A stretch of 64,000 nucleotides of DNA, taken from NCBI GenBank assembly GCA_963772585.1, contig CAVYXV010000013.1:62555-126554 (forward strand), given 5' to 3'. A program made the translations under genes and the position numbers. The notes beneath the pieces are model-generated. The model saw only the letters and a list, made by a program, of their open reading frames with translations, ran no database searches and was not told where the DNA came from. The stretch is from an uncultured Planctomycetota bacterium (GTDB lineage Bacteria; Planctomycetota; PLA2; JAEUHO01). Below, piece after piece: positions 5,224-64,000 of the stretch. How positions within the stretch are numbered: position 1 is the stretch's first letter; each line of letters opens with the position of its first letter.

Positions 5224-5277
5224 GCGGTACGGCGATACGGAGCCACGGGGCGGTACGGAGCCGGGCTCCGGTACGCC
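5224..5277. repeat. REP-like palindromic units (GGTACGGAGCC-G-GGCTCC) upstream of the hydrolase gene
   Basis: ggcggtacggcgatacggagccacggggcggtacggagccgggctccggtacg contains the same GGTACGGAGCC half-sites as the array downstream of the gene (see 6098-6338). Confidence 0.6.
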
Positions 5278-6085: not shown

Positions 6086-6097
6086 CGTTCGGTACGG

Positions 6098-6338
6098 CGG
6101 TACGGAGCCTGGCTCCCGATCAAACCCTTCGACGGTACGGAGCCTGGCTCCCGATCCGACCTTTCGACGGTACGGAGCCTGGCTCCCGATCAGACCTTTT
6201 GCACCCCGACGGGCTCCCCCGAGCGCGTCGAGGGCCCTACTTCCGGGCGCTCCCGGCGAACCGTGTGCATCGGAGCCAGGCTCCGTAGCGAGGCTCCGTA
6301 GCGCGAAAAGGTGTGCCTGGGAGCCAGGCTCCGTACGG
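6098..6338. repeat. array of REP/BIME-like palindromic repeats: 3 direct 35-bp-period units then 2 inverted units
   Basis: CGGTACGGAGCCTGGCTCCCGATC at 6098, 6133 and 6168; the core GGAGCC-T-GGCTCC is a perfect palindrome. Inverted copies GGAGCCAGGCTCCGTA at 6272 and 6319. The array sits between convergent genes (hydrolase stop 6085, HEAT gene stop 6340). Confidence 0.8.
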
Positions 6339-6339
6339 A

Positions 6340-12311: not shown

Positions 12312-12646
12312 CTGAGAGAACGTGAAGAAATCGAAGTCCGGGGCTTCGGCCGGCTGCGGGACCACGATGCTGCGTTGCTCGTCGTCAGCGACCCACGGTG
12401 GGGTCGCCTCCTCCTCGCGCCTTGCCTCGTGGCCCCTCGCTCGGCCTCGGGCCCTCGGCCCATTTCTTCACGCCCTCTGAGAGAACGTGAAGAAATCGAA
12501 GTCCGGGGCTTCGGCCGGCTGCGGGACCACGATGCTGCGTTGCTCGTCGTCAGCGACCCACGGTGGGGTCGCCTCCTCCTCGCGCCTTGCCTCGTGGCCC
12601 CTCGCTCGGCCTCGGGCCCTCGGCCCCTTCCTTCACAGCCTCTGAG
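12312..12646. repeat. 165-bp tandem duplication (2.03 near-identical copies) in a divergent intergenic region
   Basis: Copy 1 at 12312-12476, copy 2 at 12477-12641, and the first 5 nt of a third. The two copies differ only in the last ~15 nt. Open in several frames (ORF 11970..12719 reads the same 55-aa peptide twice). A related copy lies at 31464-31590. Confidence 0.9.
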
Positions 12647-12761: not shown

Positions 12762-13940
12762 ATGATGACGCCGCTCCACATGCAGGACCTCGAAGCACTT
12801 CTCGCGCACCGCGAAGGTCCCTGCGTCTCCATCTACATGCCGACGCATCGCACGGGTCACGAGATGCAGCAGGACACGATCCGTCTCAAGAACCTCCTCA
12901 AGGCCTCGGAACGCGAGCTCCAGGGCGTGGCAATTCGGGAGACGTCGGCGCAGGAGATCCTGAAGCCGGCCCGTGACCTGTTGAACGAGGGACCGTTCTG
13001 GGAGAACCTCGGGGACGGGCTCGCCGTGTTCCTCGCACCGGGGTTCTCGCGCATCTACCGCCTTCCCGCGCCCTTCAGCGAGCTCCACGTCGTCGCCGGC
13101 GCATTCCACGTGAAGCGGCTCCTCCCGATCGTGGGCGGCGACGGGCGCTTCTACGTCCTGGCGCTCAGCCAGAACGAAGTGCGCCTGCTACGGGGCACGC
13201 GATTCCACGTGGAGGAACTGGAGCCCGACGGCATGCCCAAGAGCCTGCGGGAAGCGCTCTGGATGGACCACCCCGAGAAGAGCCTCCAGTTCCACACGGG
13301 CTCCTCCGCCGCCACGACGGGCGACGGAGGCTCCCGGCGAGCGGCCGTCTTCCACGGGCAGGGCGGGCCCGCCGCCATCGAGAAGTCGAAGCTGGAGCGG
13401 TACTTCCGCCGCGTCGACGACGGCCTGAGGGAGCACCTGGCCAACGGCAAGGACCCCCTCGTCCTCGCCGGCGTGGATCACTACTTCCCGATCTACCGGG
13501 AGATCAGCAAGGTCCCGACCCTGGAGAAGGAGGGCGTCCCCGGCAACCCGGAGAAACTCAGCATGAGGGAGCTCCACGACCGCGCCTGGGCCATCGTCGA
13601 ACCCCAGTTCCGGAAGGCCGAGACCGACGCGATCGACCGCTACCGGGCGCACGCCGGCCAGGGCAAGACGGCGGCGGGCCTCGAAGCCGTCCTCCCGGCC
13701 GCGCACCATGGTCGGGTGGACACGCTGCTGGTCGCCGCCGGTCGCCAGCAGTGGGGCGCGTGGGTCGCCGGGAGTGGCGCCGACGGGAGCGTCGTCATCC
13801 ACGATCACTACGAGCAGGGCGACCGCGACCTGCTCGACGTCGCGGCGGCCGCCACCTTGAAGTCGGGCGGTCGGGTCTTCCCCCTGGCGGTGGAACGGAT
13901 TCCCGACGGCGCGGATGCGCTGGCCATCCTCCGCTACTGA
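12762..13940 (+). CDS. eRF1/Pelota-like (bacterial aeRF1-type, baeRF family) protein
   Basis: ATG-ATG start with AAGGGA 10 nt upstream. Central segment AVFHGQGGPAAIEKSKLERYFRRV resembles the eRF1 GGQ loop (HGRGGQSALRFARLR). C-terminal GRVDTLLVAAG matches the eRF1/Dom34 domain-3 signature VETLLV. Confidence 0.65.
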   Translation: MMTPLHMQDLEALLAHREGPCVSIYMPTHRTGHEMQQDTIRLKNLLKASERELQGVAIRETSAQEILKPARDLLNEGPFWENLGDGLAVFLAPGFSRIYRLPAPFSELHVVAGAFHVKRLLPIVGGDGRFYVLALSQNEVRLLRGTRFHVEELEPDGMPKSLREALWMDHPEKSLQFHTGSSAATTGDGGSRRAAVFHGQGGPAAIEKSKLERYFRRVDDGLREHLANGKDPLVLAGVDHYFPIYREISKVPTLEKEGVPGNPEKLSMRELHDRAWAIVEPQFRKAETDAIDRYRAHAGQGKTAAGLEAVLPAAHHGRVDTLLVAAGRQQWGAWVAGSGADGSVVIHDHYEQGDRDLLDVAAAATLKSGGRVFPLAVERIPDGADALAILRY

Positions 13941-20313: not shown

Positions 20314-20428
20314 AGTGGGCGGAAAGGAAGGGTCCGAGGGCGCGAGGGGCCGCGAGCGGCGCAGCCGCCAAGGGCTTCTCGAAGGGCAACGCCGCATCGC
20401 GGTTCGCGGCCAAGGCGCGGCGTGGGCT

Positions 20429-27446: not shown

Positions 27447-27480
27447 TCACGAGCGGACGTTGAATCGCGGGGACCTGGCA
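27447..27480 (+). promoter_or_regulatory. copy (a) of a recurrent GG-N10-GC motif (sigma-54 -24/-12-like)
   Basis: cacgagcGGacgttgaatcGCggggacc; shares the ACGAACGGACGTTGMATCGCG core with copies at 29262, 35562 and 52881. Confidence 0.35.
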
Positions 27481-27565
27481 CGCATCTCGCGCCTTGCCTC
27501 GCGGCCCGGTCGGATGCGGCGCCTCCGACAGCCCGGCGCTTCGGACGTCCCACCCCCGGCCGTGA

Positions 27566-28070
27566 CCGTACGACGACGGCGAGTTCCAACGGCCCTTCGA
27601 GGCCCTGGCCGGCGCGGGTCACCCCTGCGCGGTCGTCGGATGCGACGCGGGCGAGCGACATCACCCGCCTTTGCGGAGGCAGCCACGCGACGGTGGAAGT
27701 CGCCGCGTCCCAGGCCCGCGCCACCGACTTCGACGCCCTGGTCGTCCCCGGCGGCCACGGCCCGGACCACCTGCGCCATCGCGACGACGTGGCGCGCTTC
27801 ACGCGGGACTTCTTCACCTCGAGGAAGCTCGTCGCCGCGATCGGTCACGGCGGTCAGGTCCTGATCGACGCCGGCGTCGTCGAGGGTCGCAGGGTGACGT
27901 CGGCGCCCGCGATCCAGCGGGATCTCGAGAACGCCGGGTCGGAGTGGCTCGACGTCGAGGTCGTCGTGGACGGCAACCTGATTACGTCGCGGGGCGCGAC
28001 CGACATCCACAGCTTCATCCGCGTGCGGAAGAAGGAGGTGGGCGCCGATTCGTCGTCGGAGGCGACGTAG
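27566..28070 (+). pseudogene. DJ-1/PfpI family protein, N-terminally truncated and frameshifted near 27655
   Basis: One frame encodes DDGEFQRPFEALAGAGHPCAVVG.DAGE and opens right after a TGA. A second frame continues ITRLCGGSHATVEV...DALVVPGGHGP...AAIGHGGQVL...VVDGNLITSR. No start codon covers the first beta-strand. Confidence 0.5.
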
Positions 28071-29261: not shown

Positions 29262-29310
29262 GGCCACGAACGGACGTCCCGTCGCGCGCTTCGCGGGGAG
29301 TGCAGGCACG
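29262..29310 (+). promoter_or_regulatory. copy (b) of the recurrent GG-N10-GC motif plus an inverted partner, upstream of the sigma-54 activator gene
   Basis: ccacgaacGGacgtcccgtcGCgcgcttcgcggggagtgcaggc, then acggccgttcgtg as the inverted half. Confidence 0.35.
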
Positions 29311-29449
29311 ACGCCAACGGCCGTTCGTGCATAGTGCGGGCTGGATGCGGGATTCCCCCACGCCAACCTCTGGACGGCGGCTTGCGTACGACACCACGGG
29401 GCCACCCGCGCCCGTGCGCGCCGGTGTACTCTCGCGCTCCTGGGATTGG

Positions 29450-30889
<1,440 letters not shown>

Positions 30890-31060: not shown

Positions 31061-31447
31061 ATGTCGGAAAGCAGCGGCGGTCTTCACGAGGCGAAGAGCG
31101 ATCTCGGCCCGGAGACCGTGGACCGGCACCGGGCGATCGCGTCCCTGATGGAAGAACTCCAGGCGATCGACTGGTACGAGCAACGCGTCCAGGCGACGCA
31201 GGACGAAACGCTCGGCGCGATCCTCGCGCACAACCGGGACGAGGAGAAGGAGCACGCCGCCATGCTGCTGGAGTGGCTTCGGCGCCATGATCCCGCCCTG
31301 GACGGCGAGTTGAGGACCTACCTCTTCCGCGACGGAGACATCACGACCTTGGAAGGGGCGGGAGCCGAGGGGGCCGACGACACGGGCAGTACGCCGCCCC
31401 GAACGACCCCGGACGGTTCGCTGGGCATCGGGGACATGGGAGGATGA
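31061..31447 (+). CDS. encapsulated ferritin-like cargo protein (EncFtn) with a C-terminal encapsulin targeting peptide
   Basis: AAGGAGG RBS. EncFtn ferroxidase motif (IDWYEQRV...ILAHNRDEEKEHAAMLLEWLRR). C-terminal ...DGSLGIGDMGG resembles the SLGIGxL cargo-loading peptide. Confidence 0.85.
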   Translation: MSESSGGLHEAKSDLGPETVDRHRAIASLMEELQAIDWYEQRVQATQDETLGAILAHNRDEEKEHAAMLLEWLRRHDPALDGELRTYLFRDGDITTLEGAGAEGADDTGSTPPRTTPDGSLGIGDMGG

Positions 31448-31463
31448 GAAGGAACCGGATGCA

Positions 31464-31590
31464 GTGTTTCGGCCGGCTGCGGAGCCACGACGCGCCTTGC
31501 CCCTTCGACGGGCTCACGGCGGCTGCGCCGCTCGCGGCTCCTCGCGAGGCCTCGGACCCTCGCCCCATTCCCTCAGACCCTCCGAGAGGA
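31464..31590. repeat. third member of the 165-bp repeat family, between encFtn and the encapsulin shell gene
   Basis: Shares ttcggccggctgcgg.(g/a)ccacga at its 5' end and cctcgg.ccctcg.ccc.tt.c.tca...ccctc.gagag.a at its 3' end with the tandem units at 12312-12646. Its 3' end supplies the shell-gene RBS (gagagga). Confidence 0.6.
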
Positions 31591-31597
31591 GACGACG

Positions 31598-32404
31598 ATG
31601 TTGTTCCTGCGGCGTGAACAGGCCCCGGTCTCGGAGGCCGCGTGGGCCCGGATCGACGCGGAGGCGAGACGCACGTTGCGCCTCCGCATGGGCGCTCGCA
31701 AGTTCTTCGACGTCCTCGGTCCGAAGGGGTGGGCCGACGCGTGCGTGAATCTCGGACGCAAGGCCGAGACCACGGGATTCGACCCCGGCGTGGACGCCGC
31801 AACGCGGCTCGTCCAGCCGCTGCTGGAGCTCCGTGTCCCGTTCACGCTGTCGCGCGCGGACCTGGATGACGTGGACCGGGGTTGCCCGAACCCCGATCTC
31901 GATCCCGTGATCGACGCGGCGAAGAGCCTCGCTCGCGCCGAAGGCCGGGTGCTCTTCCACGGCCACGCGGACTCGGGCGTGGTCGGCATGGCGGACGGCG
32001 GCACGCACGATCCGCTGCCGCTCCCCGAAGATCCGGAAGGCATTCCGGGCGCGGCGGCCGCCGCGGTCAACCTGCTCCGGGACGAGGGCATCGAAGGGCC
32101 CTACGGCATCGCGCTCGGGTCCCGGCCCTACACCGGCCTCGTGCAGGCGCCCGCCTCCGGCGGCTATCCCGCTCTCGATCGGCTTCGCAACGTCCTCAGC
32201 GGCCCGGTCGTCTGGGCGCCGTCGCTCGAGGGCGCGGTGGTGCTGAGCATGCGCGGCGGCGACTTCGAGTTGCACGTCGGCCAGGACGCCTCGATCGGCT
32301 TCCACTCGCACACGCCGGAAGACGTCCACTTCTTCCTGGTGGAGACCTTCACGATGCTGAATCTCACGCCCGAAGCGGCGATCGGCCTCCAGTACGGAGG
32401 ATAG
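31598..32404 (+). CDS. family-1 encapsulin nanocompartment shell protein (linocin M18 / CFP29 type)
   Basis: MLFLRREQAPVSEAAW...GRKFFDV, ELRVPFTL, RGCPNPDL, DEGIEGPYGIALG, GGDFELHVGQDASIGF, VHFFLVETFT. These are collinear with the T. maritima and M. xanthus encapsulin sequences. Confidence 0.9.
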   Translation: MLFLRREQAPVSEAAWARIDAEARRTLRLRMGARKFFDVLGPKGWADACVNLGRKAETTGFDPGVDAATRLVQPLLELRVPFTLSRADLDDVDRGCPNPDLDPVIDAAKSLARAEGRVLFHGHADSGVVGMADGGTHDPLPLPEDPEGIPGAAAAAVNLLRDEGIEGPYGIALGSRPYTGLVQAPASGGYPALDRLRNVLSGPVVWAPSLEGAVVLSMRGGDFELHVGQDASIGFHSHTPEDVHFFLVETFTMLNLTPEAAIGLQYGG

Positions 32405-33451: not shown

Positions 33452-33739
33452 TCAGTCCCGGCTCCCGTGGCTTTCGAGCTGGTCGATGTCGCGCCGGAGA
33501 TGCTCGAGCCTCTCTACGATCTCGGGCCTCTGCGACTTCATGTGATCGGGCCCGAGTTGTGACCGTTTCACGAGATCCAGGATCTCCGCGTGCCGATCGC
33601 GAAGGCTCGCCCGCTGTTTCGTGAAGAGAGGGCTGGGGCCTTTGCCGGGCATCGGAACGCGAGGCGCGAGCACGTCGATCCGCTCTCCGTAGTCGTCCAT
33701 GGTGGACTTCCACTCGTCGAACGGGGGAGGCTGTGTCAT
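33452..33739 (-). CDS. small hypothetical protein (95 aa), first gene of a three-gene minus-strand operon
   Basis: ATG at 33739 with GGGAGGAG RBS. Hydrophilic. No known domain. Confidence 0.45.
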   Translation of the reverse strand: MTQPPPFDEWKSTMDDYGERIDVLAPRVPMPGKGPSPLFTKQRASLRDRHAEILDLVKRSQLGPDHMKSQRPEIVERLEHLRRDIDQLESHGSRD

Positions 33740-33895
33740 GGGGATCTCCTCCCGAATTCCGAACGCGGATGCCCTCTGGCACTCGATGACGGACCCGTGT
33801 CCGGCGAAGAACACGCGGCAAGCGCTGTGCCGGGGGAACGCGGCGCGTTTCGTTCCGCGCATGCGGCGGCCGCGGGGCCGGTGGCGGGCTGCCCG

Positions 33896-34813
33896 CTACG
33901 CCGTCGCCTTCTCGCCCAGGCGGACGAGCGCGCGCTGCCGGCCCTCGTCGAGCCGCCGGGCCCTCCGCGCGATGTCCGCCCACGGGTCGTCGCGGGCTCC
34001 GAGGCGCCGGAGGATGTTCTCCAGGCGCCACCGTCTCGCGTCGAGGTCCGGATCGTCGAGCTCGTCCCACTCCAGCGGGGTGGCCACCGGTGCCCCTTCA
34101 CGCGCCCTCACGGCGTACGGAGCGACCGCCGTCTGGCCGCGGGCGTTCCGCATCACGTCGAGATACACGCGGTCGCCTCGCTTCGTCTTCCGCACCTCCA
34201 GCGTCAGCGCTCGGGGCTGACGCCGTACGAGAACCTCCGCGGCCCCGCGTGCGAACGCACGGACTTCATCGAAGGTCCTTTCTGGCCGGATGGGGACCAC
34301 GACGTGCAGCCCCCGAGAACCCGTCGTCTGGACGAAAGGAACGAGATCGATCTCCCGCATGAGCTCCCCCAGTCGTCGGGCCGCCTCGCGAATCCTCCCG
34401 AAGGGAGCGCCCGCGGGGGGATCCACATCGAAGACGATCCGGTCGGGGTGGTCGAGGTCCGGCTCCCTGCTCAGCCAGACGTGCAGCGTGATGCACGCCT
34501 GATCGACCAGGAAGGCGAGGCTGGAGCGGCTCTGTGCCGTCAGCTGTCGCTGGTGGCCCTCGGCGGTCCGCACCGTCGTGCGGTGGACCCAGTCGGGCGT
34601 CCTGGCGGGCACGCGCTTCTGGTAGAAGCCCTCGCCCTCGATGCCGTCGGGGTATCGCTGGAGCGTGAGCGGCCGGCCCCGGAGGTGGCGCAGCATGGTC
34701 TCGCCGACCCCCACGTAGTAATCCAGGAGATCCCGCTTCGTCACGCCGCAATCCGGGAACAGGACCTTGTCGGGATGGGACAGTTCGACGCGCCCGAACC
34801 CATGGGCCATCAT
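33896..34813 (-). CDS. stand-alone LigD polymerase/primase domain (NHEJ PolDom)
   Basis: ATG-ATG with AAGGAGG RBS. HPDKVLFPD.GVTKRDLLDYY, GRPLTLQRYPDGI, FYQKRVP, and SRGLHVVVPI motifs of the LigD polymerase domain. Confidence 0.85.
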   Translation of the reverse strand: MMAHGFGRVELSHPDKVLFPDCGVTKRDLLDYYVGVGETMLRHLRGRPLTLQRYPDGIEGEGFYQKRVPARTPDWVHRTTVRTAEGHQRQLTAQSRSSLAFLVDQACITLHVWLSREPDLDHPDRIVFDVDPPAGAPFGRIREAARRLGELMREIDLVPFVQTTGSRGLHVVVPIRPERTFDEVRAFARGAAEVLVRRQPRALTLEVRKTKRGDRVYLDVMRNARGQTAVAPYAVRAREGAPVATPLEWDELDDPDLDARRWRLENILRRLGARDDPWADIARRARRLDEGRQRALVRLGEKATA

Positions 34814-34896
34814 TGAAGGTCCTCCTTGGCGCGTCCCCCCGCCCGGTCCCTCGCTTGCGGGCCGTGCCGCGCCCCGGAGCGCGGTCGGAGCGGACC

Positions 34897-35514
34897 ATGA
34901 GCACACGGAAGGAACCGCTGGAAACGTACGCGAGCCGGCGCTCGTTCGGCAAGACGCCCGAGCCGGATGTCGCCGACGACAGCCCGGTTCGCTGGCGAAA
35001 GGCCGACAATCCCATCTTCGTGATCCAGAAGCACGCCGCCAGCCGTCTGCACTACGACTTCCGTCTCGAAGTGGACGGGGTGTTGAAGTCCTGGGCCGTG
35101 CCCAAGGGTCCTTCCACGGATCCCCGGGAGAAACGCCTTGCGGTGGAGACGGAGGACCACCCCCTCGCGTACGCCGACTTCGAAGGGGTGATCCCCGAAG
35201 GCGAGTACGGGGCGGGGCGCGTGATCGTCTGGGACGCGGGGCCGTACCGCGTCCTGCCGGGCGAGGACGGCGAGGCACCGGACGCGGGCGAGGCGCTGCG
35301 GAAGGGGTACCTCGACGTCTGGCTCGAGGGTCGCAAGGTCCGCGGCGGATACGCCTTGATCCACGCGAAGGTCGGAGGGAAGCACGAGAACTGGCTCCTG
35401 GTCAAGCACGACGACGACGCGGCGGACGCGCGAAGGAAGCCCACGAGCACGCAACCCGAGAGCGTCGTGTCCGGGCGGACGATCGAGGAGATCGGTGACG
35501 ACGAGGACCCCTGA
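34897..35514 (+). CDS. stand-alone LigD 3'-phosphoesterase domain
   Basis: FVIQKHAASRLHYDFRLE.DGVLKSWAVPKGPS, TEDHPL.YADFEG.IPEGEYGAG; divergent from the polymerase-domain gene. Confidence 0.85.
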   Translation: MSTRKEPLETYASRRSFGKTPEPDVADDSPVRWRKADNPIFVIQKHAASRLHYDFRLEVDGVLKSWAVPKGPSTDPREKRLAVETEDHPLAYADFEGVIPEGEYGAGRVIVWDAGPYRVLPGEDGEAPDAGEALRKGYLDVWLEGRKVRGGYALIHAKVGGKHENWLLVKHDDDAADARRKPTSTQPESVVSGRTIEEIGDDEDP

Positions 35515-35561
35515 CGGGGCCCGTCGCCACACTCCCAATGCTGCGGGCTAGTTGGCACTAC

Positions 35562-35605
35562 CCACGAACTGGCGTTGAATCGCGCGCTTCGCGGGGAATG
35601 CAGGC
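35562..35605 (+). promoter_or_regulatory. copy (c) of the recurrent motif: CCACGAACTGGCGTTGAATCGCGCGCTTCGCGGGGAATGCAGGC
   Basis: Lies between the LigD phosphoesterase stop and the BON gene stop. TGGCGT-N5-ATCGC resembles sigma-54 -24/-12 with a 9-nt spacer. Its 3' half is near-identical to the copy at 29281. Confidence 0.35.
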
Positions 35606-37242
35606 TAGTCACCGAGCCCGGCCTCTGCGTCCGTAGAGGAAGGGGTCCCTTCCTCGTCCTTCGGCAGCGGCGGCAGCTTCGGAGGATTCACGTCCAGGTC
35701 GTCCACGACCCATCCGGCTCCCGCTTCGTACGCATTCATGATCGCGGCGTGCTTCTCGCTCCAGCTGTCCACCTCGCCCGAGAGACGCACCACGCCGTTC
35801 TCGACCGCGACGTCCACGTCCATCAGGTCCACGAACGGGCTCCACCAGATCTCCTGTTCCACGCGGCTCTTCAGCTTCCGGTCGCTGATCGGCACGCTGT
35901 AAGACGACGGCTGATACCACCTGACGTTCGCCCACGCGAGATCGTCCACGTACGGTCCGTAGACCAGCGGCGTGTAGTGATCGCGGACGTCGAGGGCGTT
36001 GTCCACGTCTTGGACCCCGCGAGCCCTGGAAACCAGGTCCTCGGCCCGCATCTTCTCCCAATAGGTGTTGACGGTCCCGTCCAGGCGAATCTTCCCGTCG
36101 TCAGCCGTGATCTCGATGTCGTGGGAGTCCACGATGGGATCTCGTACCACGTTTCCGAGAGCGCGCATCTCGAGCTCGTCGTCGGCGACGTGCGGGGGAC
36201 GCACCTTCACGCGATTCCACACCCCGAGAACCCCGGTCACGTTCCGGGCGTCGGCGCCTGCGCAGCGCCGCGCCTTCAGATTGTCCACCGTACCTCGGAG
36301 GGTCACGAAACCGTCCTGCAACGTCGGCTCGATGTCGAACGAATGGACCCGCGGATCGACGGAGAGCGCATCGATGACCGCCGCCTTCACGTCCTCAACG
36401 GCACGCCGGGCCGGTCTTCCTCTCACGTCGGGGCCTTCGGTCCAGTCGCGGACGGAGACGCCGCTCACGTCCACGCTCTTCACCCCCATGACGTAGGCAT
36501 CACCCTCGGCTCTGTCCTTCTCCGCAGCGCTACGGACCACGCCGACGAGGCGCACGCCACCGTCTTCCACATCGACCTGGAGCAGACGGTCATCGACACG
36601 AACGTCCCAATCCAGGGAACGGGCGATCTCGCTTTGGATCTCGCCGTCCGAGCGAGGTGTCATGAGATTCACGGACATCGCGTCCTCGACGTCCAGCACG
36701 CCGTCTACGCTCTTCGCGACCTTCCGTGCGAGCTGGTCCTCGCGCCAGGAGTCCACCGCGCCGTGCAGGGTGACGACCCCGCCCCCGACGTTCACCTTCA
36801 ACTCGTAGGCGTCCGTTGCAGGATCCGCGTGGAGGGCCTCCTGGACGTCCTTCTTGACGATGGCGTCGGATCGCACGGAATCCGGATCGATCTTCAGGCG
36901 ATTCACCACGCCTCGCACGCCACGCATGGCCTTGGCGATGCGGACGGCCCGCTCTTTCTCCAGGAGGCTGTCCACCTCCCCCTCGAGGGTGACGATGCCC
37001 CCGACGACGCGGACGTCCACGTCGTCGAGCGTGACGACGGGATCGTGGGCGATCTGGTCCTCGACGGCGATCAGCACGCTCGGGTCGTCGAGCGAGGGCG
37101 TATTCGGCTCGTCGGCGAAGGCAGGGCCGGACCGGACGACGACGACGGCCGCGGCGAGAACGGCAAGGACCCCGACGAAGGCCGGTCCCCCCATGACGCG
37201 AAGACGTCGCGTCGACGCGTGGATGCGGTTGTCGTATCTCAT
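35605..37242 (-). CDS. secreted protein with about six BON (OsmY-like) domains
   Basis: Signal peptide. Repeated ~70-aa units with the BON signature (V.V.GG.VTL.G.V.S...R..A....GV..V.N.L.V). Confidence 0.85.
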   Translation of the reverse strand: MRYDNRIHASTRRLRVMGGPAFVGVLAVLAAAVVVVRSGPAFADEPNTPSLDDPSVLIAVEDQIAHDPVVTLDDVDVRVVGGIVTLEGEVDSLLEKERAVRIAKAMRGVRGVVNRLKIDPDSVRSDAIVKKDVQEALHADPATDAYELKVNVGGGVVTLHGAVDSWREDQLARKVAKSVDGVLDVEDAMSVNLMTPRSDGEIQSEIARSLDWDVRVDDRLLQVDVEDGGVRLVGVVRSAAEKDRAEGDAYVMGVKSVDVSGVSVRDWTEGPDVRGRPARRAVEDVKAAVIDALSVDPRVHSFDIEPTLQDGFVTLRGTVDNLKARRCAGADARNVTGVLGVWNRVKVRPPHVADDELEMRALGNVVRDPIVDSHDIEITADDGKIRLDGTVNTYWEKMRAEDLVSRARGVQDVDNALDVRDHYTPLVYGPYVDDLAWANVRWYQPSSYSVPISDRKLKSRVEQEIWWSPFVDLMDVDVAVENGVVRLSGEVDSWSEKHAAIMNAYEAGAGWVVDDLDVNPPKLPPLPKDEEGTPSSTDAEAGLGD

Positions 37243-37426
37243 CGGTCGTACTCCTCTCTGACGCTGCCCGCGTCACGACACGCAGGGGGCGCAACCCGCA
37301 TGCCGCCGTCTCCGGGCAGGGGGGCGTGTCCCGGGAAGGGTGAATCGGAGGGAGAGCCACCAGGGGTTTCGGAACCCCCGGCACGGACCGCAAGACGACG
37401 GGGGGAGGGCCTGGACCCTCCGACGT

Positions 37427-37870
37427 TCAGGCGCGGTGCGCCGTGAGCCCCTCGAATCGGCGCAGATTCGCCTTTGCTCCGGCCGCCTGGCTCGTGACGA
37501 GGCCGCGAATGTCGTCGCCGAGAGGCGCCGCCATGGCCTCGTCGTAGTGCTTCACCGCGGCACGTTCTGCACGGACGATCTCCTCGAGCAGCGTCTTGTC
37601 GGCGCTCCCGGAGAGCGTGCTGCGTGCCTCCAGCCACGTCCTGCCAAAGGCCCCCGGCACCGTCCCTCGCTCCGCCGGTCTCCCGCCCAGCTCCTCGATC
37701 TTGTCCACGAGTTGTTGCGCCGCGATCGCGCACGACTCGAGACTCGTCTCGAACGCCGCCTTCAGCGTCTCGTCGTCGGTGATCTCCTTGGCCCGCCCGA
37801 AGGTCTCTTCGCCGTCCTTCGAAACGTGGAGCAGATCGCCCAGGAGACTGATGGTCGCCGCCTCGTCCAT
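37427..37870 (-). CDS. DUF2383 (PA2169-family) four-helix-bundle protein, second paralogue
   Basis: LLGDLLHVSKDGEETFGRA, RAERAAVKHYDEA; same family as 26883-27332. Confidence 0.7.
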   Translation of the reverse strand: MDEAATISLLGDLLHVSKDGEETFGRAKEITDDETLKAAFETSLESCAIAAQQLVDKIEELGGRPAERGTVPGAFGRTWLEARSTLSGSADKTLLEEIVRAERAAVKHYDEAMAAPLGDDIRGLVTSQAAGAKANLRRFEGLTAHRA

Positions 37871-38214
37871 GGTCTTGTCATCTCCGGATGGGTTTCATTC
37901 GGGGATCGAGGCCTGTCGTCATGCCTATCTTCGATCCTGCTTGCCCTCCGGCAAATCACGGACCGGGCGTCGATCCGCCCGCCTACCCCGGACCGCGGCG
38001 CCGGGGAGGTCGTCAGGCCCCGGTCCGGGCGCACTCCGGGAGGGCGCTTCGAGCCGGCAGGTTCGCGCTTCGCTCCCCGCGATTCTCGCCCTTTGCCGGC
38101 CGACGGCGACTCTCACCGGCACTGCCCGCCCCTTCTTCGACCGCGACGCGGACCCTCTGGTGATCGCACTCCAGGCCGATCCAGGAGCCGCGGAAACGGA
38201 TCCGGAAGTCCAGC

Positions 38215-38780
38215 CGACGGATCGCGACGGGGAGCCTCGGATTCAGCCGGAGGGTGCCGTCCGGGATCTCGAGCCCCGTGAGACCGCGCTGGACCCGGTC
38301 GACCGTGCTTTCCATCGCTCCCACGTGGATGCCCTCGGGGGATGGGAGGGACTGATCGCCAAGAACGCCGCCTCTCCCTACGTCGGAGGGCGATCGCCCC
38401 ACGGGCTCGAGTTCAAGTGCCACGGCGAACAGGAGTTCGTCGTCGCCGGCTTCACCGACCCCGAGGCCGACGAGGACTGGATCGGCGCCCTGGTTCTGGG
38501 GATCTACGAGAAGGGCGATCTCGTCCACGCCGGCCGGGTCGGTACGGGCTTCGACGACGACGAGCGAGGGGACCTTCGACGGCGTCTGGCGCGCTCGGAG
38601 CGCAGGTCCCCACCGTTCCCGGCGGAGGTGCCCCACCCGTCCGAGGTGCCCTGGACGACGCCCAGGATGGTCGTGCAGGTCGCCTTCACGGGGTGGACGA
38701 GGAAGGGGCGGCTTCGTCACCCCCGCTACCTGGGAATCCGACACGACAAGGACCCGACCGCGGTCCACCGGGAGGGCTGA
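38215..38780 (+). pseudogene. remnant of an ATP-dependent DNA ligase (LigD ligase domain, C-terminal motifs IV-VI and OB fold only)
   Basis: EGLIAKNAASPYVGGRS..W.K.K, EFVVAGF, and RHPRYLGIRHDKDP motifs. There is no motif I (KxDGxR) in any frame, and only ~345 nt of space before the upstream gene. Confidence 0.5.
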
Positions 38781-39164: not shown

Positions 39165-39256
39165 TCCGCGCACGCGCGACGTCCTCGATTGGCATGCGGG
39201 ATGCGACTTCCCGGTCGGACCGGTCGCAGGAGTGCGACCGCTCCGGGAGATCGATC

Positions 39257-51980: not shown

Positions 51981-52871
51981 ATGCGGATCCCGGGTCTGAT
52001 CGTGTTGGGCGCGCTCGTGCTCGGCGTGGGTGCTTGCGGCACAGGCGCGGGTTCCACGACACCGGGCACCCCCCTCGTGACGGTGCAGGGCGTCGTGATG
52101 GCGACGGACGGCTCCACCGCGTCGGTCGACGGCATCGACGTCGCCTGCCCCGAGGCAGGCGTACAGGTCACGACCGACGCGGAGGGACGATTCCAGTTCC
52201 AGGTTCCGATGGACCAGACGTTCCACATGGGCTTCGCGGACCCGACGTGGCCCGTGACCGGCCAACACCGCGGCGTCGATCAAGAGCCCTCCGATCCGAC
52301 GGCGGACCCCACGGAGGTCGATGGCTCCATCGTCACGTGCCGCCCCGAACAGCCTCTCCCCTGGTGCGACGTCGAGGTCTACCTCGAGGAGGGTGAGGTC
52401 GCCGAGTGCGACGTGCACTGGTACGGCGCCGACGGCGACAGCCACGACGGCGAAGACGTCCTCGAGTGCATGGGGCCCTGGCACGACTCGGGTGTCCTCG
52501 CCGAGGTCGAAACCACGCTCGAAGGTGCCTGCATGACCGTCGAGTGCGAGGTCGAGGGACTGCCCGCGGACACCTCTTACCAGATCGTGATGATGGACGC
52601 CGACGGAAACGTCCGGCCCCTGGCCATGCTCGACGTGGACGATGGGGGCACGGGTCACATGGAGTGGTCGTGGTGCGATGGCGACGACCTCCCCTTCGAC
52701 GCCATGATACCGGCCGACTGCCTCGGGTACGGGATGGCGATCCTCGACGCCCAGGGCGAGATGGTCTTCCAGGGCCACCTTCCGCAGGGCGAGATGTACG
52801 CCGGCCATCACCACGGCGGCGGGATGGGTGGTATGGGCGGCATGGGCGGCATGGGACCGTACGCCCGCTAG
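51981..52871 (+). CDS. lipoprotein with a carboxypeptidase-regulatory-like domain, an acidic Cys-containing middle, and a C-terminal HHHGGGMGGMGGMGGMG tail
   Basis: GGGAGGA RBS. Lipobox GVGACG. VQGVVMATDG...VTTDAEGRFQFQVP resembles CarbopepD_reg. The Met/Gly/His-rich C-terminus is typical of Cu(I)/Ag(I)-binding periplasmic proteins. Confidence 0.6.
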   Translation: MRIPGLIVLGALVLGVGACGTGAGSTTPGTPLVTVQGVVMATDGSTASVDGIDVACPEAGVQVTTDAEGRFQFQVPMDQTFHMGFADPTWPVTGQHRGVDQEPSDPTADPTEVDGSIVTCRPEQPLPWCDVEVYLEEGEVAECDVHWYGADGDSHDGEDVLECMGPWHDSGVLAEVETTLEGACMTVECEVEGLPADTSYQIVMMDADGNVRPLAMLDVDDGGTGHMEWSWCDGDDLPFDAMIPADCLGYGMAILDAQGEMVFQGHLPQGEMYAGHHHGGGMGGMGGMGGMGPYAR

Positions 52872-52880
52872 CCGGCACGA

Positions 52881-52906
52881 CCCACGAACGGACGTTGCAT
52901 CGCGCG
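52881..52906 (+). promoter_or_regulatory. copy (d) of the recurrent motif (cccacgaacGGacgttgcatcGCgcgg)
   Basis: Same core as copies a-c; sits 10 nt after the 51981 gene stop and 190 nt upstream of the 53096 lipoprotein gene. Confidence 0.35.
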
Positions 52907-53095
52907 GCCCTCGTGTCCGGGGCCGGGAGGACTCCAAGGAGGCGAGTCCGGCGGGCGAGAGGGATCCCGTCTGGCGAATCGGTCGTACGCGTCTCGCGCC
53001 CGGAACCTCGGTTGCTCGTCGTCCGCGAGCCTACGGACGAGGGCGTTTCGGACGGGATCTTCCCCCGCCCCCTTCCGACGGGTAGAACGCTCCGC

Positions 53096-54737: not shown

Positions 54738-54972
54738 CCGCTCCCCTACCCGGTTGAACGGCGGCGCGCCTCCTACGCGAAGGGCGACCGCCTTTTCGAA
54801 GCACGGCGCGGAGGCGCGGGGCGCGCCCCCACCACGACCGACGTGCTTCTCTTGCCCGGCCCGCACGGCGATTCGCCGCGGAGTTTCGATCGAACGTCGA
54901 AACGAGTAGGGTCGAACCGGAACCCGGAGTCGGTTGCGCCCAGGACCCGTCGTCCTGGACGGGAGGTACGAC

Positions 54973-56470
54973 ATGCACACCAGGAGGAACCCTCCGGCCG
55001 CCGTGGTGGCGTGCACCCTGTTGCTCGCACTCGCGTCGTGCCGGACGTCCAGGGGGACCCTTGCCTCCCCCGGGGAGCGCGTGTCCACCACCTCGGAGGT
55101 GGCCACCGGCGCGCACGGTGGGCGTGAGGTCGCGGCGACCCACCCGCCGGGAACGCCCCCGGTCGCAGAGCCGGCGACGCCGGCCGCTCCGACGCGACCG
55201 GGCCCCGCCGGACACCGGACGGTCTCGACCCCGCTGCTCTCCATCCTGTCCATGACCTTCACGCGAAATCCGGACATCCGGCGGGCTCGCGCCCAGTGGC
55301 GGGCGGCGATCGAGAAGATCCCGCAGGCGAAGGCGCTCCCCGATCCCTCGTTCCAGGTCCTCCACTGGGTGGAGAGCGTGGAGACGCGGGTCGGCCCGCA
55401 GGAACAGGCCTTCACGCTCACACAGAAGATCCCGTGGCCCGCGAAGCTCGCGAACGCGGGTCGCGTGGCGGAGGCGGGTGCACGCATCGCCGCATTGCGG
55501 TACTCGGCGGTTGTCCGCGACGCGCTCGCGGCGGCGAAGGCGTCCTACTACGAGTATTCCTATCTCGTCCGGGCGCGCGAACTCGTCAGGCAGAACCAGG
55601 AGATCGCCGCCCGCCTCGCCGGTCTCGGCGCGGAGATGATGGCCGAGGACAGGGCCCTCCTGATCGACGTCCTCAAGGCCCAGTCGCAACTCGCGCAGCT
55701 CCAGTACGACCTGATCACCCTCGAGGAACTGATCGCGGCCGAGCGAACCCGGCTGAACGGTTTGATGAACCGCCAACCCGACGAGCCGATTCCGGAGCCG
55801 CCCGAACCACTCTTCCCTCGTCTCGTGATTTCCGTCGACAGGCTCTTCCAGCTCGCGATGTCGAATCGGGAGGAGATCCGCATCGCGGATCGGACCATCC
55901 AGCAGGCGTGCGCCCGCCTCGCCCTGGCGCACAGCCAGGCCCGCCCCGACTTCACGCTCGGTGGAACCTGGATCCGCGTGGGGGAGAACAGCGCCGCCGC
56001 CGCGCCTCCCCCCCGACAGCGGCAAGGACGCGTGGGGCGTCGTGCTGGGCGTCAGTATTCCGCTCTGGGCGAACAAGAACGCCGCGGTGATCCGCCAGGC
56101 GGACGCGGAGCGCGACGCCGCGGTCGCCGGACGGGCGTCGGTTGTCGTCGAGACGAAGACGATGATCCAGGACGCCTACACGAAGCTCTCCAACGCCGAG
56201 CGACTCGTACTCCTGTACCGCGACAGTCTCGTCCCCCAAGCGGAACAGGTGATGCTGTCCACGGAGGAACTGGCCCGAGAAGACCGTATGCGCCTCGGGG
56301 ACTACCTCGAGGCCCAGACGGTCTGGCTCAACTTCACCCTCGCCAAGGAGCGCGCCCTCGCGGACTACCAGCAGGCGATCGCTCGGCTGGAGCGCCTGAC
56401 CGGTGCCAACCTCGCCCCTTCCCCCCCGCAGCCGCCCATGGCGGCCCCCACCGAAGAGGAGTCGCGATGA
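54973..56470 (+). CDS. TolC/CusC-family outer-membrane efflux lipoprotein (copy 1), interrupted by a +1 frameshift at a C7 tract (56008-56014)
   Basis: GGGAGG RBS. Lipobox LLALASC. The N-terminal half is in frame 1 up to ...ENSAAAAPP. The C-terminal half (ORF 55961..56470, DSGKDAWGVVLGVSIPLW...) is in frame 2. Removing one C restores a contiguous OMP. Confidence 0.7.
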
Positions 56471-58013
56471 ACAGGGAACGCGGTAGAGGCGAGGGTCGAG
56501 CGTTCCCGCTACTCCTCCCGCTCCTCCTGTTCGCGGGCGCCTGCAGCGCCAGCCCGCTGCGCGGGGACTACGCGGGAGGCGGCGAGACCCCCTTTGCCCG
56601 ACGGGCCATCGCGGGAGAGTCGGCGATCCCCATCGCTGCCCATCCCGAACCCGTCCGCGCCGGCGAGGACCAGGTGATCGAGAAGGTGCGGAACCAACTG
56701 GATGCCCTGGCCCGGACCTTCCGCGAGCGAGCGAAGCGAGGTCCCTCGGATCCGAAACGCCTCGGCTTCGACGTCGAGCGGGACGTGAGCAACGAACGGC
56801 TCCAGCAGGACCTGACGCTGGCGGTCGTGCTCGGAGCGGCCTTCGAGATGAGCCCGGCCATCCAATCCGCGCGGGACGCCTTCCGCGCCACCGTGGAGCA
56901 GTTCAGTCAGGTGGCCTTCCTCGACACGATCCTGCGGCAGTACGTGTCCTTCACGAAGGACCTGAACCTCCGGGTGGGCAAGCCGCGGCAGAAGGAGACG
57001 GTCGAATCGCTGTTCCCGTTCCCGGGCACGCTCGCGCTGAAGAGTCGCATCGTGGAGGAAGAGGCGAAGGCCGCGGAGGAGCACCTCCAGGCGACCGTCC
57101 GCCGGACGCTCGTATCTGCGGGGAAGACCTACTACGACTACGGGTACGCCCAGGAAGCCATCGGGATCGTCGAGGAGAACATCCAGGTTCTTCGCGGCAT
57201 GGTCGAGATCGCGGAGTCCCGGTACGGCGTCGGCGAGACCAAGCAGGGCGTCGTCCTCAAGACCCATACGGAGATCGCCACGCTCGAGGAGAAGCTGGTC
57301 ACGCTGAAGCAGGAGGTGCAGACCGCGAGGGCGCGGCTGGCCTCCGTTCTCGGCCTGCCGCCCGACTTCCCTCTGGGCCCCGCCCAGGTACCGGAACCCA
57401 GCGCGCCGCCGTCGGCCGTCGAACCGCTCTACGACCTGGCCCGTCGCTCCCGACAGGAGATCCTGGCCCTCGACGCGAAGATCGCTCGAACCGAGGCGCT
57501 CATCGAACTCTCGGAGACCCAGACGTACCCGGATCTCTCGCTGGGCTACAGCCGTTTCGAGGAGGGGACGGGCACGCGCGTCGGGGGCGCTCGGATGACG
57601 GAGCCGTTCGCCGAGAAGCCGACCCAGATGCCGAAGCCGTGGTTCGGTCAGAGCGCGTCCTTCATCGAGGAGATGAAGGGCCGCTTGCGGGCCATGCAGG
57701 CATCCCGCGCCGATCTCGTCGCGACGGTCGCGTACCAGGTCAAAGACGCGTGGTTCAAGTGGGACGCGGCCTGGCGTCAGACCGCCCTCTACCACTCGAC
57801 ACTCCTTCCCTCCGCGGAGCAGACGTACGAAGTGCTCCAGTCCGGTTGGCAAGAGGGTGTCGTGGACTTCCTCGACGCGCTCGACGCTCAGCGCGTCTGG
57901 TTGAAGGTCCGTCTCCAGGAGAAGGCCGTCATCCGCGACACGCTCGCCGGAAGATTGGCCCTGCTCGACGCGCTGGGGACCGGCCTCCCCCCGAGACCCC
58001 GAACTCACACTGA
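56467..58013 (+). CDS. TolC/CusC-family outer-membrane efflux lipoprotein (copy 2); the stop is reached only after a frameshift at a C6 tract (57987-57992)
   Basis: ATGA overlap with the copy-1 stop. Lipobox LLFAGACS. TolC-like repeats. The reading frame has no stop for 2.7 kb, while the -1 frame gives ...LPPETPNSH* ending at 58013, matching the ORF 57639..58013 tail. Confidence 0.7.
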
Positions 58014-58024
58014 AGACCAAAGCC

Positions 58025-60691
58025 ATGAAGACTTCGAACAACCTCTCCGTGATCCTGGCGATCGGCGCCGCCCTCGTCGGCCTCGGCGCCGGATACCTCC
58101 TGTTCCACCGGGGCCAGAATGGTGCGACGACGCCGACGGGGCAGTCGGCGACCGCGGAAGGTCCCACGACGCTCTACACGTGCGGCATGCACCCGGAGGT
58201 GATCCAGGACCACCCCGGAACATGCCCGCAGTGCGGCATGACGCTGACGCCTCTCCAGACGGACGAGGCGGAAGAGGGCAATGGCGGAGGGAAGGACCGC
58301 AAGGTCCTCTACTGGGTCGCGCCCATGGACCCTTCCTACATCAAGGACAAGCCCGGGAAGTCTCCGATGGGCATGGACCTCGTGCCCGTCTACGAGGACG
58401 AGGTGAAGGGCGGCCCCACGGTCAAGATCGATCCGACCACGCAACAGAACATGGGGATCCGAACCGCTCCCGTCGAGAAGGGCCCCCTCGTTCACCAGGT
58501 TCGGGCCGTGGGGAACGTCGGGTACGACGAGACCAAGATCGGCATCGTCTCGCTGAAGGTCGGCGGATACATCGACGAGCTGTTCGTGAGCGAGACCGGC
58601 GTCGCGGTGAAGAAGGGCCAGCCCCTCTTCTCCATGTACGCGCCGGAGGTGGTCCAGGCCCAGGAAGAGTACTTGCTGGCGAAGCGGAGCCTCGAGAAGA
58701 GCGACGCGGTGGACCCCAAGCACTGGCGCAATCTGCTCGCCGCTTCGCGCCTCAAGCTGCTCCGATGGGACATCTCCGAGGACCAGATCCACGAGCTCGA
58801 GAAGCGAGGCAGGCCCGAGAAGAACGTCGTCTGGAGGAGCCGCTTCGATGGCATCGTCCTCCACAAGAACGCCGTCGAGGGCGCGTACTTCAAGCCGGGA
58901 GATCCTCTCTACAAGATCGCCGGCCTCGACACGATCTGGGTGGAAGTCTCGATCTACGAGTACGAATTCCCGTGGATCAAGACCGGACAGCCCGCTCGGA
59001 TGGAGCTCCCCTACTACCCGGGGGAAGTCTTCCAGGGCGTCGTGGACTTCATCTATCCCTACCTCGACCCCCGCACACGCGACCTGAAGGTGCGACTCGT
59101 GTTCGACAACCCGGGACGCGAACTGCTCCCCGACATGTACGTCACGGTGATCATCGATTCGAAGCTCGCCGACGAGGCCATCCTCGTGCCGGGCGAAGCC
59201 GTTCTCGACACCGGTACGCGACAGGTCGCATTCGTCGCCCGCGGGAAGGGGCACTTCGAGCCGCGCAACATCACGGTCGGCGTGGAGGGCGAAGGCGGCC
59301 GGCGCGAGGTGGTGATGGGGCTCGTTCCCGGCGAGTACGTCGTCACGTCCGGCCAGTTCCTTCTCGACTCCGAGTCGAAGATCAAGGAGGCGATCCAGAA
59401 GATGCTGGAGAGCCGAAAGCAAGGCGGGAACGCCGGCGAGTCCGAAGCGCGGGGCGCTCCTTCCGGGTCGCTGGCGGCCCTGCCGAAAAAGGACCGGTCG
59501 GCGTTCAAGGCCCCTCCGGGACTGGTCCCGGTCGTGGGCGACGTCTGCCCGGTGATGGGCGGGGAGCCCCAACCCGACGTCTTCGTCGACTACAAGGGCT
59601 ACCGCGTCTTCTTCTGCTGCACCGGGTGCCCCCCCCGCTTCCTCGCCGAACCCGAGAAGTACATGCAGAAGCTCCGCCGCATGGGCGCCGTCCCCTCCAC
59701 GGAACCCGAGAGCGGGACTGCCCCACCCGACGCGCGGTTCTCCGCGCCGGAGGGCCTGATCCCCGTCGTGCCGAAGGCGTGCCCCGTCATGGGCGGCGAA
59801 CCCCAACCCGACGTCTACGTGGACTACAAGGGCTATCGCATCTTCTTCTGCTGCGCCGGCTGCCCCGAAGAGTTCGAGAAGGACCCCGAGACCTACATGA
59901 AGAAGCTCCGCGAGGAGGGCGCGATTCCCGCGGAAACCCCGACCGCCGCACCGGCACCGGCACCGGCGCCGGCACCGGACGACCGTTTCAAGGCACCCGA
60001 GGGCCTCGTCCCGGTCGTGCCCAAGGCGTGCCCCGTCATGGGCGGCGAACCCCAACCCGACGTCTACGTGGACTACGAGGGCTATCGCATCTTCCTCTGC
60101 TGCGCCGGCTGCCCCGAAGAGTTCGAGAAGGACCCCGAGACCTACATGAAGAAGCTCCGCGAGGAGGGCGCGATTCCCGCGGAAACCCCGACCGCCGCAC
60201 CGGCACCGGCACCGGCGCCGGCACCGGACGACCGTTTCAAGGCACCCGAGGGCCTCGTCCCGGTCGTGCCCAAGGCGTGCCCCGTCATGGGCGGCGAACC
60301 CCAACCCGACGTCTACGTGGACTACGAGGGCTATCGCATCTTCCTCTGTTGCGCCGGCTGCCCCGAAGAGTTCGAGAAGGACCCCGAGACCTACATGAAG
60401 AAGCTCCGCGAGGAGGGCGCGATTCCCGCGGAAACCCCGACCGCCGCACCGGCACCGGCACCGGCGCCGGCACCGGACGACCGTTTCAAGGCACCCGAGG
60501 GCCTCATCCCGGTCGTGCCCAAGGCGTGCCCCGTCATGGGCGGCGAACCCCAACCCGACGTCTACGTGGACTACAAGGGCTATCGCTTCTTCTTCTGCTG
60601 CCAGGGCTGCCCCGAGAAGTTCCTGGCCGACCCAGGCCGCTACATCGAGGAGCTCCGCGCCCAGGGCATCCACATCGGCATCCATGACTGA
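58025..60691 (+). CDS. RND efflux periplasmic adaptor (CusB-like) with an N-terminal CxxC metal-binding domain and five C-terminal YHS/TRASH domains
   Basis: N-terminal TM. TCGMHPEV...CPQCGM heavy-metal-binding domain. Membrane-fusion-protein core (barrel-sandwich/beta-barrel motifs). Then 5 x [CPVMGGEPQPDV(Y/F)VDYKGYR(I/V)FFCC(A/T/Q)GCP] separated by AP-rich linkers. Confidence 0.85.
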   Translation: MKTSNNLSVILAIGAALVGLGAGYLLFHRGQNGATTPTGQSATAEGPTTLYTCGMHPEVIQDHPGTCPQCGMTLTPLQTDEAEEGNGGGKDRKVLYWVAPMDPSYIKDKPGKSPMGMDLVPVYEDEVKGGPTVKIDPTTQQNMGIRTAPVEKGPLVHQVRAVGNVGYDETKIGIVSLKVGGYIDELFVSETGVAVKKGQPLFSMYAPEVVQAQEEYLLAKRSLEKSDAVDPKHWRNLLAASRLKLLRWDISEDQIHELEKRGRPEKNVVWRSRFDGIVLHKNAVEGAYFKPGDPLYKIAGLDTIWVEVSIYEYEFPWIKTGQPARMELPYYPGEVFQGVVDFIYPYLDPRTRDLKVRLVFDNPGRELLPDMYVTVIIDSKLADEAILVPGEAVLDTGTRQVAFVARGKGHFEPRNITVGVEGEGGRREVVMGLVPGEYVVTSGQFLLDSESKIKEAIQKMLESRKQGGNAGESEARGAPSGSLAALPKKDRSAFKAPPGLVPVVGDVCPVMGGEPQPDVFVDYKGYRVFFCCTGCPPRFLAEPEKYMQKLRRMGAVPSTEPESGTAPPDARFSAPEGLIPVVPKACPVMGGEPQPDVYVDYKGYRIFFCCAGCPEEFEKDPETYMKKLREEGAIPAETPTAAPAPAPAPAPDDRFKAPEGLVPVVPKACPVMGGEPQPDVYVDYEGYRIFLCCAGCPEEFEKDPETYMKKLREEGAIPAETPTAAPAPAPAPAPDDRFKAPEGLVPVVPKACPVMGGEPQPDVYVDYEGYRIFLCCAGCPEEFEKDPETYMKKLREEGAIPAETPTAAPAPAPAPAPDDRFKAPEGLIPVVPKACPVMGGEPQPDVYVDYKGYRFFFCCQGCPEKFLADPGRYIEELRAQGIHIGIHD
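59730..60480. repeat. 249-bp near-perfect tandem repeat x3 inside the adaptor gene (YHS domains 2-4)
   Basis: Identical 62-aa wrong-frame ORFs at 59787, 60036 and 60285 (period 249). The encoded 83-aa units differ only at K/E and F/L positions. Confidence 0.9.
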
Positions 60692-60763
60692 GCGCCGTCA
60701 AGGGACACGTCCTACGGGGCGACAACCGGTTCCGCGAACGAGAACGCCGGGAGACCATCGAGC

Positions 60764-63700: not shown

Positions 63701-64000
63701 GAGCGAGAACGCGCGGAAGACGGCGTGGATCTACGTGGATCTGTCCACGTCCGACATCGGCGGGTGGGTGGACCAGGCCAAGGGCGTGGTCGCCGACCAC
63801 GTGGACATGCCCGCCGGCTACACCCTCCAATGGTCCGGGCAGTACGAGTACATGCAGGCCGCCTCGAAGCGCCTCCGGCTCGTGATCCCGTTCACCCTCC
63901 TCCTCATCATCATCCTGCTCTACACCTCCACACGCAGTTGGTTCCGGACGGCTGTCGTGCTGCTGGCGGTTCCCTTCAGCCTCGTGGGCGCCATGTGGTT
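60764..64000 (+). CDS. CusA/CzcA-family heavy-metal efflux RND transporter (3' end runs off the window), with a 1-nt frameshift near 61565
   Basis: [23 protein letters not shown]...[32 protein letters not shown] is canonical. After ...RVKQAIQT the frame slips (cag acg a tcc aac aac gac gtc ggg ggc = SNNDVGG). RND motifs continue to the window end. Confidence 0.8.

Follow-up and report, generated by a model that had tools for sequence, protein, structure and literature searches.

Among the described sequences dispersed between bacterial genes, the element analyzed here stands closest to the REP/REPIN and BIME repeats, the MITEs and the putative mobile promoters. REP units measure tens of nucleotides, lie only between genes and occur singly or as inverted doublets that fold into long hairpins; in E. 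coli they are found about once per 8 kb. MITEs, too, are small dispersed elements that lie between genes and do not code; they have inverted repeats at their termini and target-site duplications. As defined by Matus-Garcia et al. 2012 (PMC3488235), putative mobile promoters are stretches 50 nt or longer that share 80% identity or more and lie no farther than 100-150 nt upstream of start codons, before genes that are not themselves homologous. Sigma-54 (RpoN) promoters enter the comparison through a first-pass annotation, which read the motif described below either as a promoter of this class, perhaps combined with an activator site, or as a small dispersed repeat.

In the window, by which we mean the whole 64-kb stretch of DNA analyzed (71% G+C, Myxococcota-like), a motif of about 45 bases recurs, and its best reading is an ordinary sort of feature, a repeat resembling the REP or 'mobile promoter' kind. 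More precisely, we see about an even chance that it represents a lineage-specific family of short interspersed intergenic repeats, 40-60 nt long and modular. The core (CCACGAACGGACGTTGMATCGCGCG), searched with up to 3 mismatches, matches the window five times, always on the plus strand (3468, 27447, 29264, 35562 and 52882), and is not matched once in 100 dinucleotide-preserving shuffles at the same tolerance. An nhmmer profile of these copies recovers all five on the plus strand (E = 4e-10 to 3e-6) and also gives a minus-strand match at 29315-29342 (E = 0.0027), which a gapped alignment extends to a full-length inverted copy with its left module included (c6, z = 7.2 against shuffles). The window thus holds six copies, five plus and one inverted, more than the four first annotated; copy c1 (core at 3468) is an addition to that list. 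Between cores, pairwise identity is 18-22 of 25 positions, and c5 (52882) is the nearest to every other copy, which places it at the center of what is a mosaic family. Copies, neighboring genes and sigma-54-like sites are collected in the table.

Copies of the repeat, the genes on either side and sigma-54-like sites, by position in the window
Feature	Position	Strand	Remarks
c1 left neighbor, FHA-GAF-adenylate cyclase gene	start GTG 3379	-	GGAGG ribosome-binding site
c1 left module and core (CTGGCCGGCACGACCCCCGAACGGGCCTTGCATCGCGCGGCCC)	3454-3496	+	165-nt divergent gap; 91% identity to c5
c1 tail, type A (...GCATCTCGCGC)	3497-3513	+	also in c2
c1 right neighbor, YbaK-like gene	ATG 3545	+	
c2 left neighbor, DUF2383 gene	probable ATG 27332	-	
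c2 core and type-A tail, without left module	27447-27492	+	360-nt divergent gap
sigma-54-like 16-mer TGGCACGCATCTCGCG in c2 type-A tail	27476-27491	+	10.1 bits
c2 right neighbor, DJ-1/PfpI gene, frameshifted	27550-28070	+	
c3a/c6 left neighbor, 113-aa gene	stop 29227	+	c3a starts 37 nt after stop
c3a core and type-B tail (CTTCGCGGGGAGTGCAGGC)	29264-29307	+	222-nt tandem gap
c6 inverted copy (AGCCCGCACTATGCACGAACGGCCGTTGGCGTCGTGCC... on minus strand)	29298-29342	-	tail-to-tail with c3a
c3a/c6 right neighbor, sigma-54 activator, 479 aa, HTH_8 domain	29450-30889, ATG 29450	+	confirmed by protein look-up
c4 left neighbor, LigD 3'-phosphoesterase gene	34897-35514	+	
c4 (focal), left module, core and type-B tail	35548-35605	+	90-nt convergent gap
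c4 right neighbor, six-BON-domain protein gene	ATG 37242, stop 35605-35607	-	
sigma-54-like site CGGCATGCGGGTTGCG	37290-37305	-	~50 nt upstream of six-BON-domain gene
sigma-54-like site TGGCATGCGGGATGCG	39190-39205	+	67 nt upstream of Usp (universal stress protein) gene, 39257
c5 left neighbor	TAG stop, ends 52871	+	stop lies inside c5 left module
c5 left module and core	52868-52910	+	224-nt tandem gap
sigma-54-like site CGGAACCTCGGTTGCT	53001-53016	+	10.9 bits; 80 nt upstream of M23-like gene
c5 right neighbor, M23-like lipoprotein gene	ATG 53096	+	start confirmed by P0121

The unit is built from a left module (CTAGYYGGCACKAC), the core and one of two alternative tails. A 14-nt left module (CTRGYYGGCACKAC) stands 5' of the core in three of the five plus-strand copies, c1 (3454), c4 (35548) and c5 (52868), and again in the inverted copy, and is missing from c2 and c3a; like the type-A tail described next, it was no part of the first-pass annotation. 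The type-A tail of c1 and c2 runs for about 10 nt and then continues as GCATCTCGCGC; by inspection it reads as a second unit with an internal deletion, in which GGCACG would be fused to CATC-T-CGCGC. The type-B tail of c3a and c4 is CTTCGCGGGGARTGCAGGC, and the 44-nt extension ending in it, earlier described as common to 29264 and 35562, is borne out at 84% identity; the two best-matching pairs of copies span 43 nt (91%) and 44 nt (84%). Arrangements include singlets, singlets followed by a partial second unit and one inverted doublet of about 95 nt, c3a with c6, whose predicted fold pairs CACGAACGG with CCGTTCGTG. After the tail of c4 comes GGCTAGTCACC, which repeats the left end of the unit in truncated form, and here positions 35546-35609 are predicted to fold as a 64-nt hairpin (-33.2 kcal/mol, z = -1.7); flanking GGCTAGT repeats are found at c4 only. 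Folding is confined to type-B copies, through their own tails or an inverted partner, and no consistent hairpin was found within the left module and core, in single-copy or consensus folds. The 7-mer CGAACGG was dropped as an enriched word, being frequent throughout the window (19 plus-strand and 18 minus-strand occurrences).

All six copies lie in gene-free gaps, with genes deduced from GC3 periodicity, Pfam matches and exact-protein look-ups. Gaps of this kind account for no more than about 15% of the window, and five loci out of five would fall there by chance with a probability of about 0.15^5 = 8e-5. Two of the occupied gaps are divergent, two tandem and one convergent; this use of every gap type fits a repeat that is tolerated anywhere non-coding, and not a signal with one fixed function. 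The focal copy c4 fills most of a 90-nt gap between two convergent stop codons and has no plus-strand gene downstream. It is the exception among the plus-strand copies, four of which precede a co-oriented gene, the distance from core start to start codon being 77 nt for c1, 246 nt for c2 (GTG 27693), 186 nt for c3a and 214 nt for c5. The earlier statement that three copies lie 100-200 nt upstream of a plus-strand gene holds roughly for c2, c3a and c5. Since about 75% of the genes are on the plus strand, both the strand bias of the copies (five of six) and the co-oriented downstream gene (four of five) are near what chance would give.

Several genes near the copies were noted in passing. In the frameshifted DJ-1/PfpI gene, the reading frame from GTG 27693 spans only profile positions 54-160 of 165, and the N-terminal part (YDDGEFQRPFEALAGAGH...) is encoded in a different frame immediately before this, following a stop codon. 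Within 33533-38780 the functions of LigD are split over three genes: a primase-polymerase (33896-34813, minus), the 3'-phosphoesterase (34897-35514, plus) and a ligase (37596-38780, plus). Downstream of the sigma-54 activator, genes for an encapsulated ferritin (EncFtn-like, 31061-31447) and for an encapsulin shell protein (Linocin_M18, 31598-32404) form an operon. Toward the right end, 55829-64000 is a Cus-like heavy-metal efflux cluster of lower G+C (66-67%), in which the outer-membrane-factor gene appears truncated to its second OEP repeat (55961-56470), the CusB-like protein has 249-nt repeats encoding YHS domains (59504-60770) and the CusA-like gene extends past the window end; the gaps 54738-55960 and 56471-58024 hold no convincing gene.

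Sequence comparison beyond the window suggests that the motif is lineage-restricted, because scans of the collections gave only chance coding matches or an unrelated locus. Among 185,579 species genomes (one per species; source genome not included), a degenerate exact-pattern scan found no motif locus; its 30 single matches all fall in coding sequence of unrelated taxa, with dissimilar flanks. The same kind of scan returned, from JGI metagenome contigs, one unrelated locus in 12 contigs and two isolated single matches with dissimilar flanks, and, from IMG/VR viral contigs, five chance matches only. The soil-metagenome locus, shared by 12 JGI contigs (L032-L045) and without an Rfam family, is conserved over more than 130 nt (GTTGCAAGCGCGACTTCCGCGAGCTGACGTTGCATCGCGCGCACGTGTAACGGGGGCAGG...); it stands at both ends of L039 in inverted orientation, suggesting a mobile-element terminal repeat in another organism. 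Literature searches with the sequence strings, and for myxobacterial extragenic repeats, found nothing.

Closer to the source, the same population is represented in JGI and Logan samples by contigs of 99.95-100% identity to the window, and the 6.3 kb upstream of it (L053) hold no copy. The motif is absent from relatives' contigs whose LigD 3'-phosphoesterase homologues are 68-78% identical (L047, L048, L049 and L051) and from about 27 kb of relatives at 68-69% protein identity. In the nearest relative compared, L047, the phosphoesterase is 78% identical and faces a convergent DUF2383 gene across a 50-nt motif-free spacer. The gene order of the LigD region has evidently been rearranged, since the BON gene and c4 lie between the phosphoesterase and DUF2383 in the window, whereas the two face each other directly in L047. 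Homologues of the M23-like protein are at most 59% identical, and thus too distant for a comparison of intergenic DNA.

The reading as a small dispersed repeat, the second of the two options offered at first pass, fits these data: copies are intergenic only, form a mosaic of modules, include an inverted doublet and partial units, and are absent from relatives. With REP/REPIN and BIME elements they share a unit of tens of nucleotides placed only between genes, the occurrence as singlets plus one inverted doublet folding into a long hairpin, and the presence of other repeat families in the same genome. Their density in the window, about 1 per 11-13 kb, is similar to that of REPs in E. coli, about 1 per 8 kb. 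There are also a number of differences: (i), the core is not an imperfect palindrome, which sets it apart from classical REPs, and lacks a conserved GTAG head; (ii), REPs are rare in divergent promoter regions, and two of the five loci are of that kind; (iii), no RAYT gene is seen within the 64 kb. With MITEs, the copies have in common that they are small, non-coding, dispersed, intergenic and in part hairpin-capable; unlike MITEs, they have neither terminal inverted repeats common to all copies nor target-site duplications, the units are shorter than is typical, and no parent insertion sequence was found. A Pfam scan of roughly 50 window proteins detected no transposase or RAYT-like gene. In the best-supported reading, the element works like REP/REPIN or MITE-type repeats while being a demonstrated member of neither; we do not place it in either class because its core is non-palindromic, terminal repeats and target duplications are missing, and no RAYT or transposase is among the window proteins scanned.

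How such a family would arise can be outlined. A short DNA segment may have been copied into intergenic DNA, either by a mobilizing enzyme supplied in trans, the route of REP/REPIN and MITE elements, or by recombination or gene conversion, and copies would persist only where coding sequence stays undisrupted. Any effect on neighboring genes would then be secondary and differ from copy to copy: the long hairpins predicted for the doublet (29264-29342) and the focal copy (35546-35609) could serve as transcript-end structures, and copies 5' of genes could contribute sites for protein binding or sequence that resembles a promoter.

Besides this one, at least two more families of short intergenic repeats are present in the window, which indicates that this genome tends to accumulate such sequences. 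One has a palindromic core (GGTACGGAGCCTGGCTCC), with three tandem 35-nt units at 6095-6199 (plus), two inverted copies (6272, 6320) and two incomplete ones (5237, 5255; extent in the window 5237-5262 and 6095-6340); these repeats stand on either side of an alpha/beta-hydrolase gene (5318-6085), an arrangement resembling a REP/BIME cluster. The other is a G+C-rich 29-mer (GAGGGGCCGCGAGCGGCGCAGCCGCC...) at 20352-20380 (plus) and 31528-31556 (minus), in unrelated gaps, the inverted copies being 96.5% identical, with a weaker match near 12620. In addition, a 165-nt tandem duplication (12312-12641, 98% identical) occupies part of the 728-nt gap that precedes a baeRF-family gene (12762-13940); within the duplication is a 22-mer (CTCGCGCCTTGCCTCGTGGCCC) that recurs with one mismatch directly after c2 (27486-27507).

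It is possible, although on the unlikely side, that the motif is instead a shared cis-regulatory module controlling the plus-strand gene downstream, that is, an operator or promoter recognized by some uncharacterized regulator or by an alternative sigma factor, or else a 'mobile promoter' duplicated before unrelated genes. This would account for the four plus-strand copies that stand 77-246 nt upstream of co-oriented, unrelated genes (YbaK-like, DJ-1/PfpI, sigma-54 activator and M23-like lipoprotein) and for the five of six copies on one strand, and the conserved stretch is longer than a single binding site, as in putative mobile promoters (PMC3488235). However, those distances vary, the downstream genes have no evident common function, the motif has no dyad symmetry, and c4, between convergent stops, would have only antisense RNA to drive. 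The copy c4 does read TTGGCA-N17-TTGAAT, but in TTGAAT the near-invariant A of position 2 is missing, and the hexamer TTGGCA is not kept, being replaced by CCGGCA in c1 and c5 and lacking altogether from c2 and c3a; a consensus scan found no sigma-70-like promoter or intrinsic terminator at any copy. Nor do other sigma factors offer a match, since by inspection the spacings of ECF (GGAAC-N16-17-CGT), SigH/R (GGAAT-N18-GTT), sigma-32 and sigma-28 promoters do not fit. As to the mobile promoters themselves, the likeness lies in homologous non-coding sequence before non-homologous genes, with a conserved core and divergent edges (PMC3488235). The published thresholds are nevertheless missed: the best pairs reach 43-44 nt at 84-91% identity, the copies stand 77-246 nt upstream, and one is upstream of no gene. 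Among other known signals, a Cheo-type LexA box (GAAC-N4-GTTC) was considered and set aside, as most cores read GAAC-N4-GTTG, which breaks the dyad, and conservation extends asymmetrically; IHF sites, attC core sites and ops/JUMPStart-like elements do not fit on inspection either.

Decidedly doubtful, in our estimate, is the idea that the unit is the recognition sequence of an undescribed lineage-specific protein, either the mobilizing enzyme of a new REPIN-like system with asymmetric, strand-biased units or the neighboring sigma-54 activator. If the activator did recognize the unit, the copies would constitute a small enhancer-driven regulon, with autoregulation through the doublet at 29264-29342.

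We consider it improbable that the motif is an RNA element, be it the 5' portion conserved among paralogous small RNAs or a motif of leaders or 3'-UTRs that acts within the transcript. The bias of the copies to one strand would suit such an element, as would the variable G+C-rich hairpin that follows the conserved core in each copy and the fact that three copies start 0-37 nt past the stop of an upstream plus-strand gene. Against this, Rfam returned no match for the motif: at the gathering score there were none in the whole window, and around the focal copy, with E allowed up to 10, the only matches were at E of about 3 and none lay on the motif. Single-copy folds differ from one another (z-scores -1.7 to +1.2), the consensus fold is weak (-7 kcal/mol) with a covariation term that is a penalty, no promoter or terminator brackets any copy, and c1 and c2, being in divergent promoter regions, have no plus-strand transcript coming from upstream. 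No tRNA or tmRNA was found. A small ORF on the minus strand of c5 (MQRPFVGRAG*) was rejected, its ATG being missing in c2, c3a and c4 and its frame not kept.

Just as improbable is a role as upstream activator sequence, or enhancer, for the sigma-54 activator encoded beside c3, serving separate sigma-54 promoters downstream and including autoregulation. The inverted doublet does stand upstream of that gene (29450-30889, HTH_8), and sigma-54-like sites follow the c3a core (29371, only 5.6 bits) and the c5 core (53001, 10.9 bits) at 109-121 nt, a typical distance for enhancer-binding proteins. The similar site after c2, TGGCACGCATCTCGCG at 10.1 bits, is however only about 30 nt from the core and so too close, c1 and c4 have no such site downstream, and sigma-54-like matches are in any case at chance level in the window (11 matches to TGGCAC-N5-TTGCW at no more than 2 mismatches, where 10.8 would be expected). 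The unit itself is asymmetric and about 40 nt long, whereas such binding sites are usually dyads of about 17 bp. Finally, the two sites that we regard, from their sequence, as the window's best sigma-54 promoter candidates, 37305 (minus) and 39190 (plus), have no motif copy upstream; they are nearly identical to each other, take the canonical form GGCATGCGGGWTGCG and are unrelated to the motif. In L047, a textbook sigma-54-like site (CGGCACGTGGCTTGCC, 2310-2345) stands about 45 nt upstream of a small gene whose window homologue is at 33533-33739 (minus).

The sequence does not support the core as a sigma-54 -24/-12 promoter. That it would be one, with GG at -24 and GC at -12, was the first option at first pass, and the features behind it are there: GG-N10-GC is literally present in three of the four copies then known (35562 being the exception) and in four of the five plus-strand copies once c1 is added, the activator gene adjoins c3, and the left module contains GGCAC and the core TTGCAT, reminiscent of the two sigma-54 boxes. 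In DNA of 71% G+C, however, the GG-N10-GC spacing is almost uninformative, and the two blocks are 16 nt apart where sigma-54 requires 5. On a -24/-12 matrix whose frequencies are approximations of the Barrios et al. 1999 compilation, the proposed site CGGACGTTGCATCGCG at 52889 scores -4.1 bits, ranking about 4,285th of some 128,000 positions; the core is not among the 11 window matches to TGGCAC-N5-TTGCW and does not match the extended consensus YTGGCACGrNNNTTGCW. With c4 between convergent genes and good sites elsewhere that bear no relation to the motif, this reading is scarcely credible.

The correction is a general one, in that GG-N10-GC in DNA of 71% G+C should not be taken as a sigma-54 promoter; the window's real candidates for such promoters are elsewhere, upstream of the BON, Usp and M23-like genes. 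Read as a dispersed repeat, the motif adds one lineage-specific family to the many short intergenic repeats of bacteria. Given a whole genome, it could mark this uncultured high-G+C lineage, and it may offer a small model for studying the spread of asymmetric short repeats and the way they begin to affect adjacent genes.
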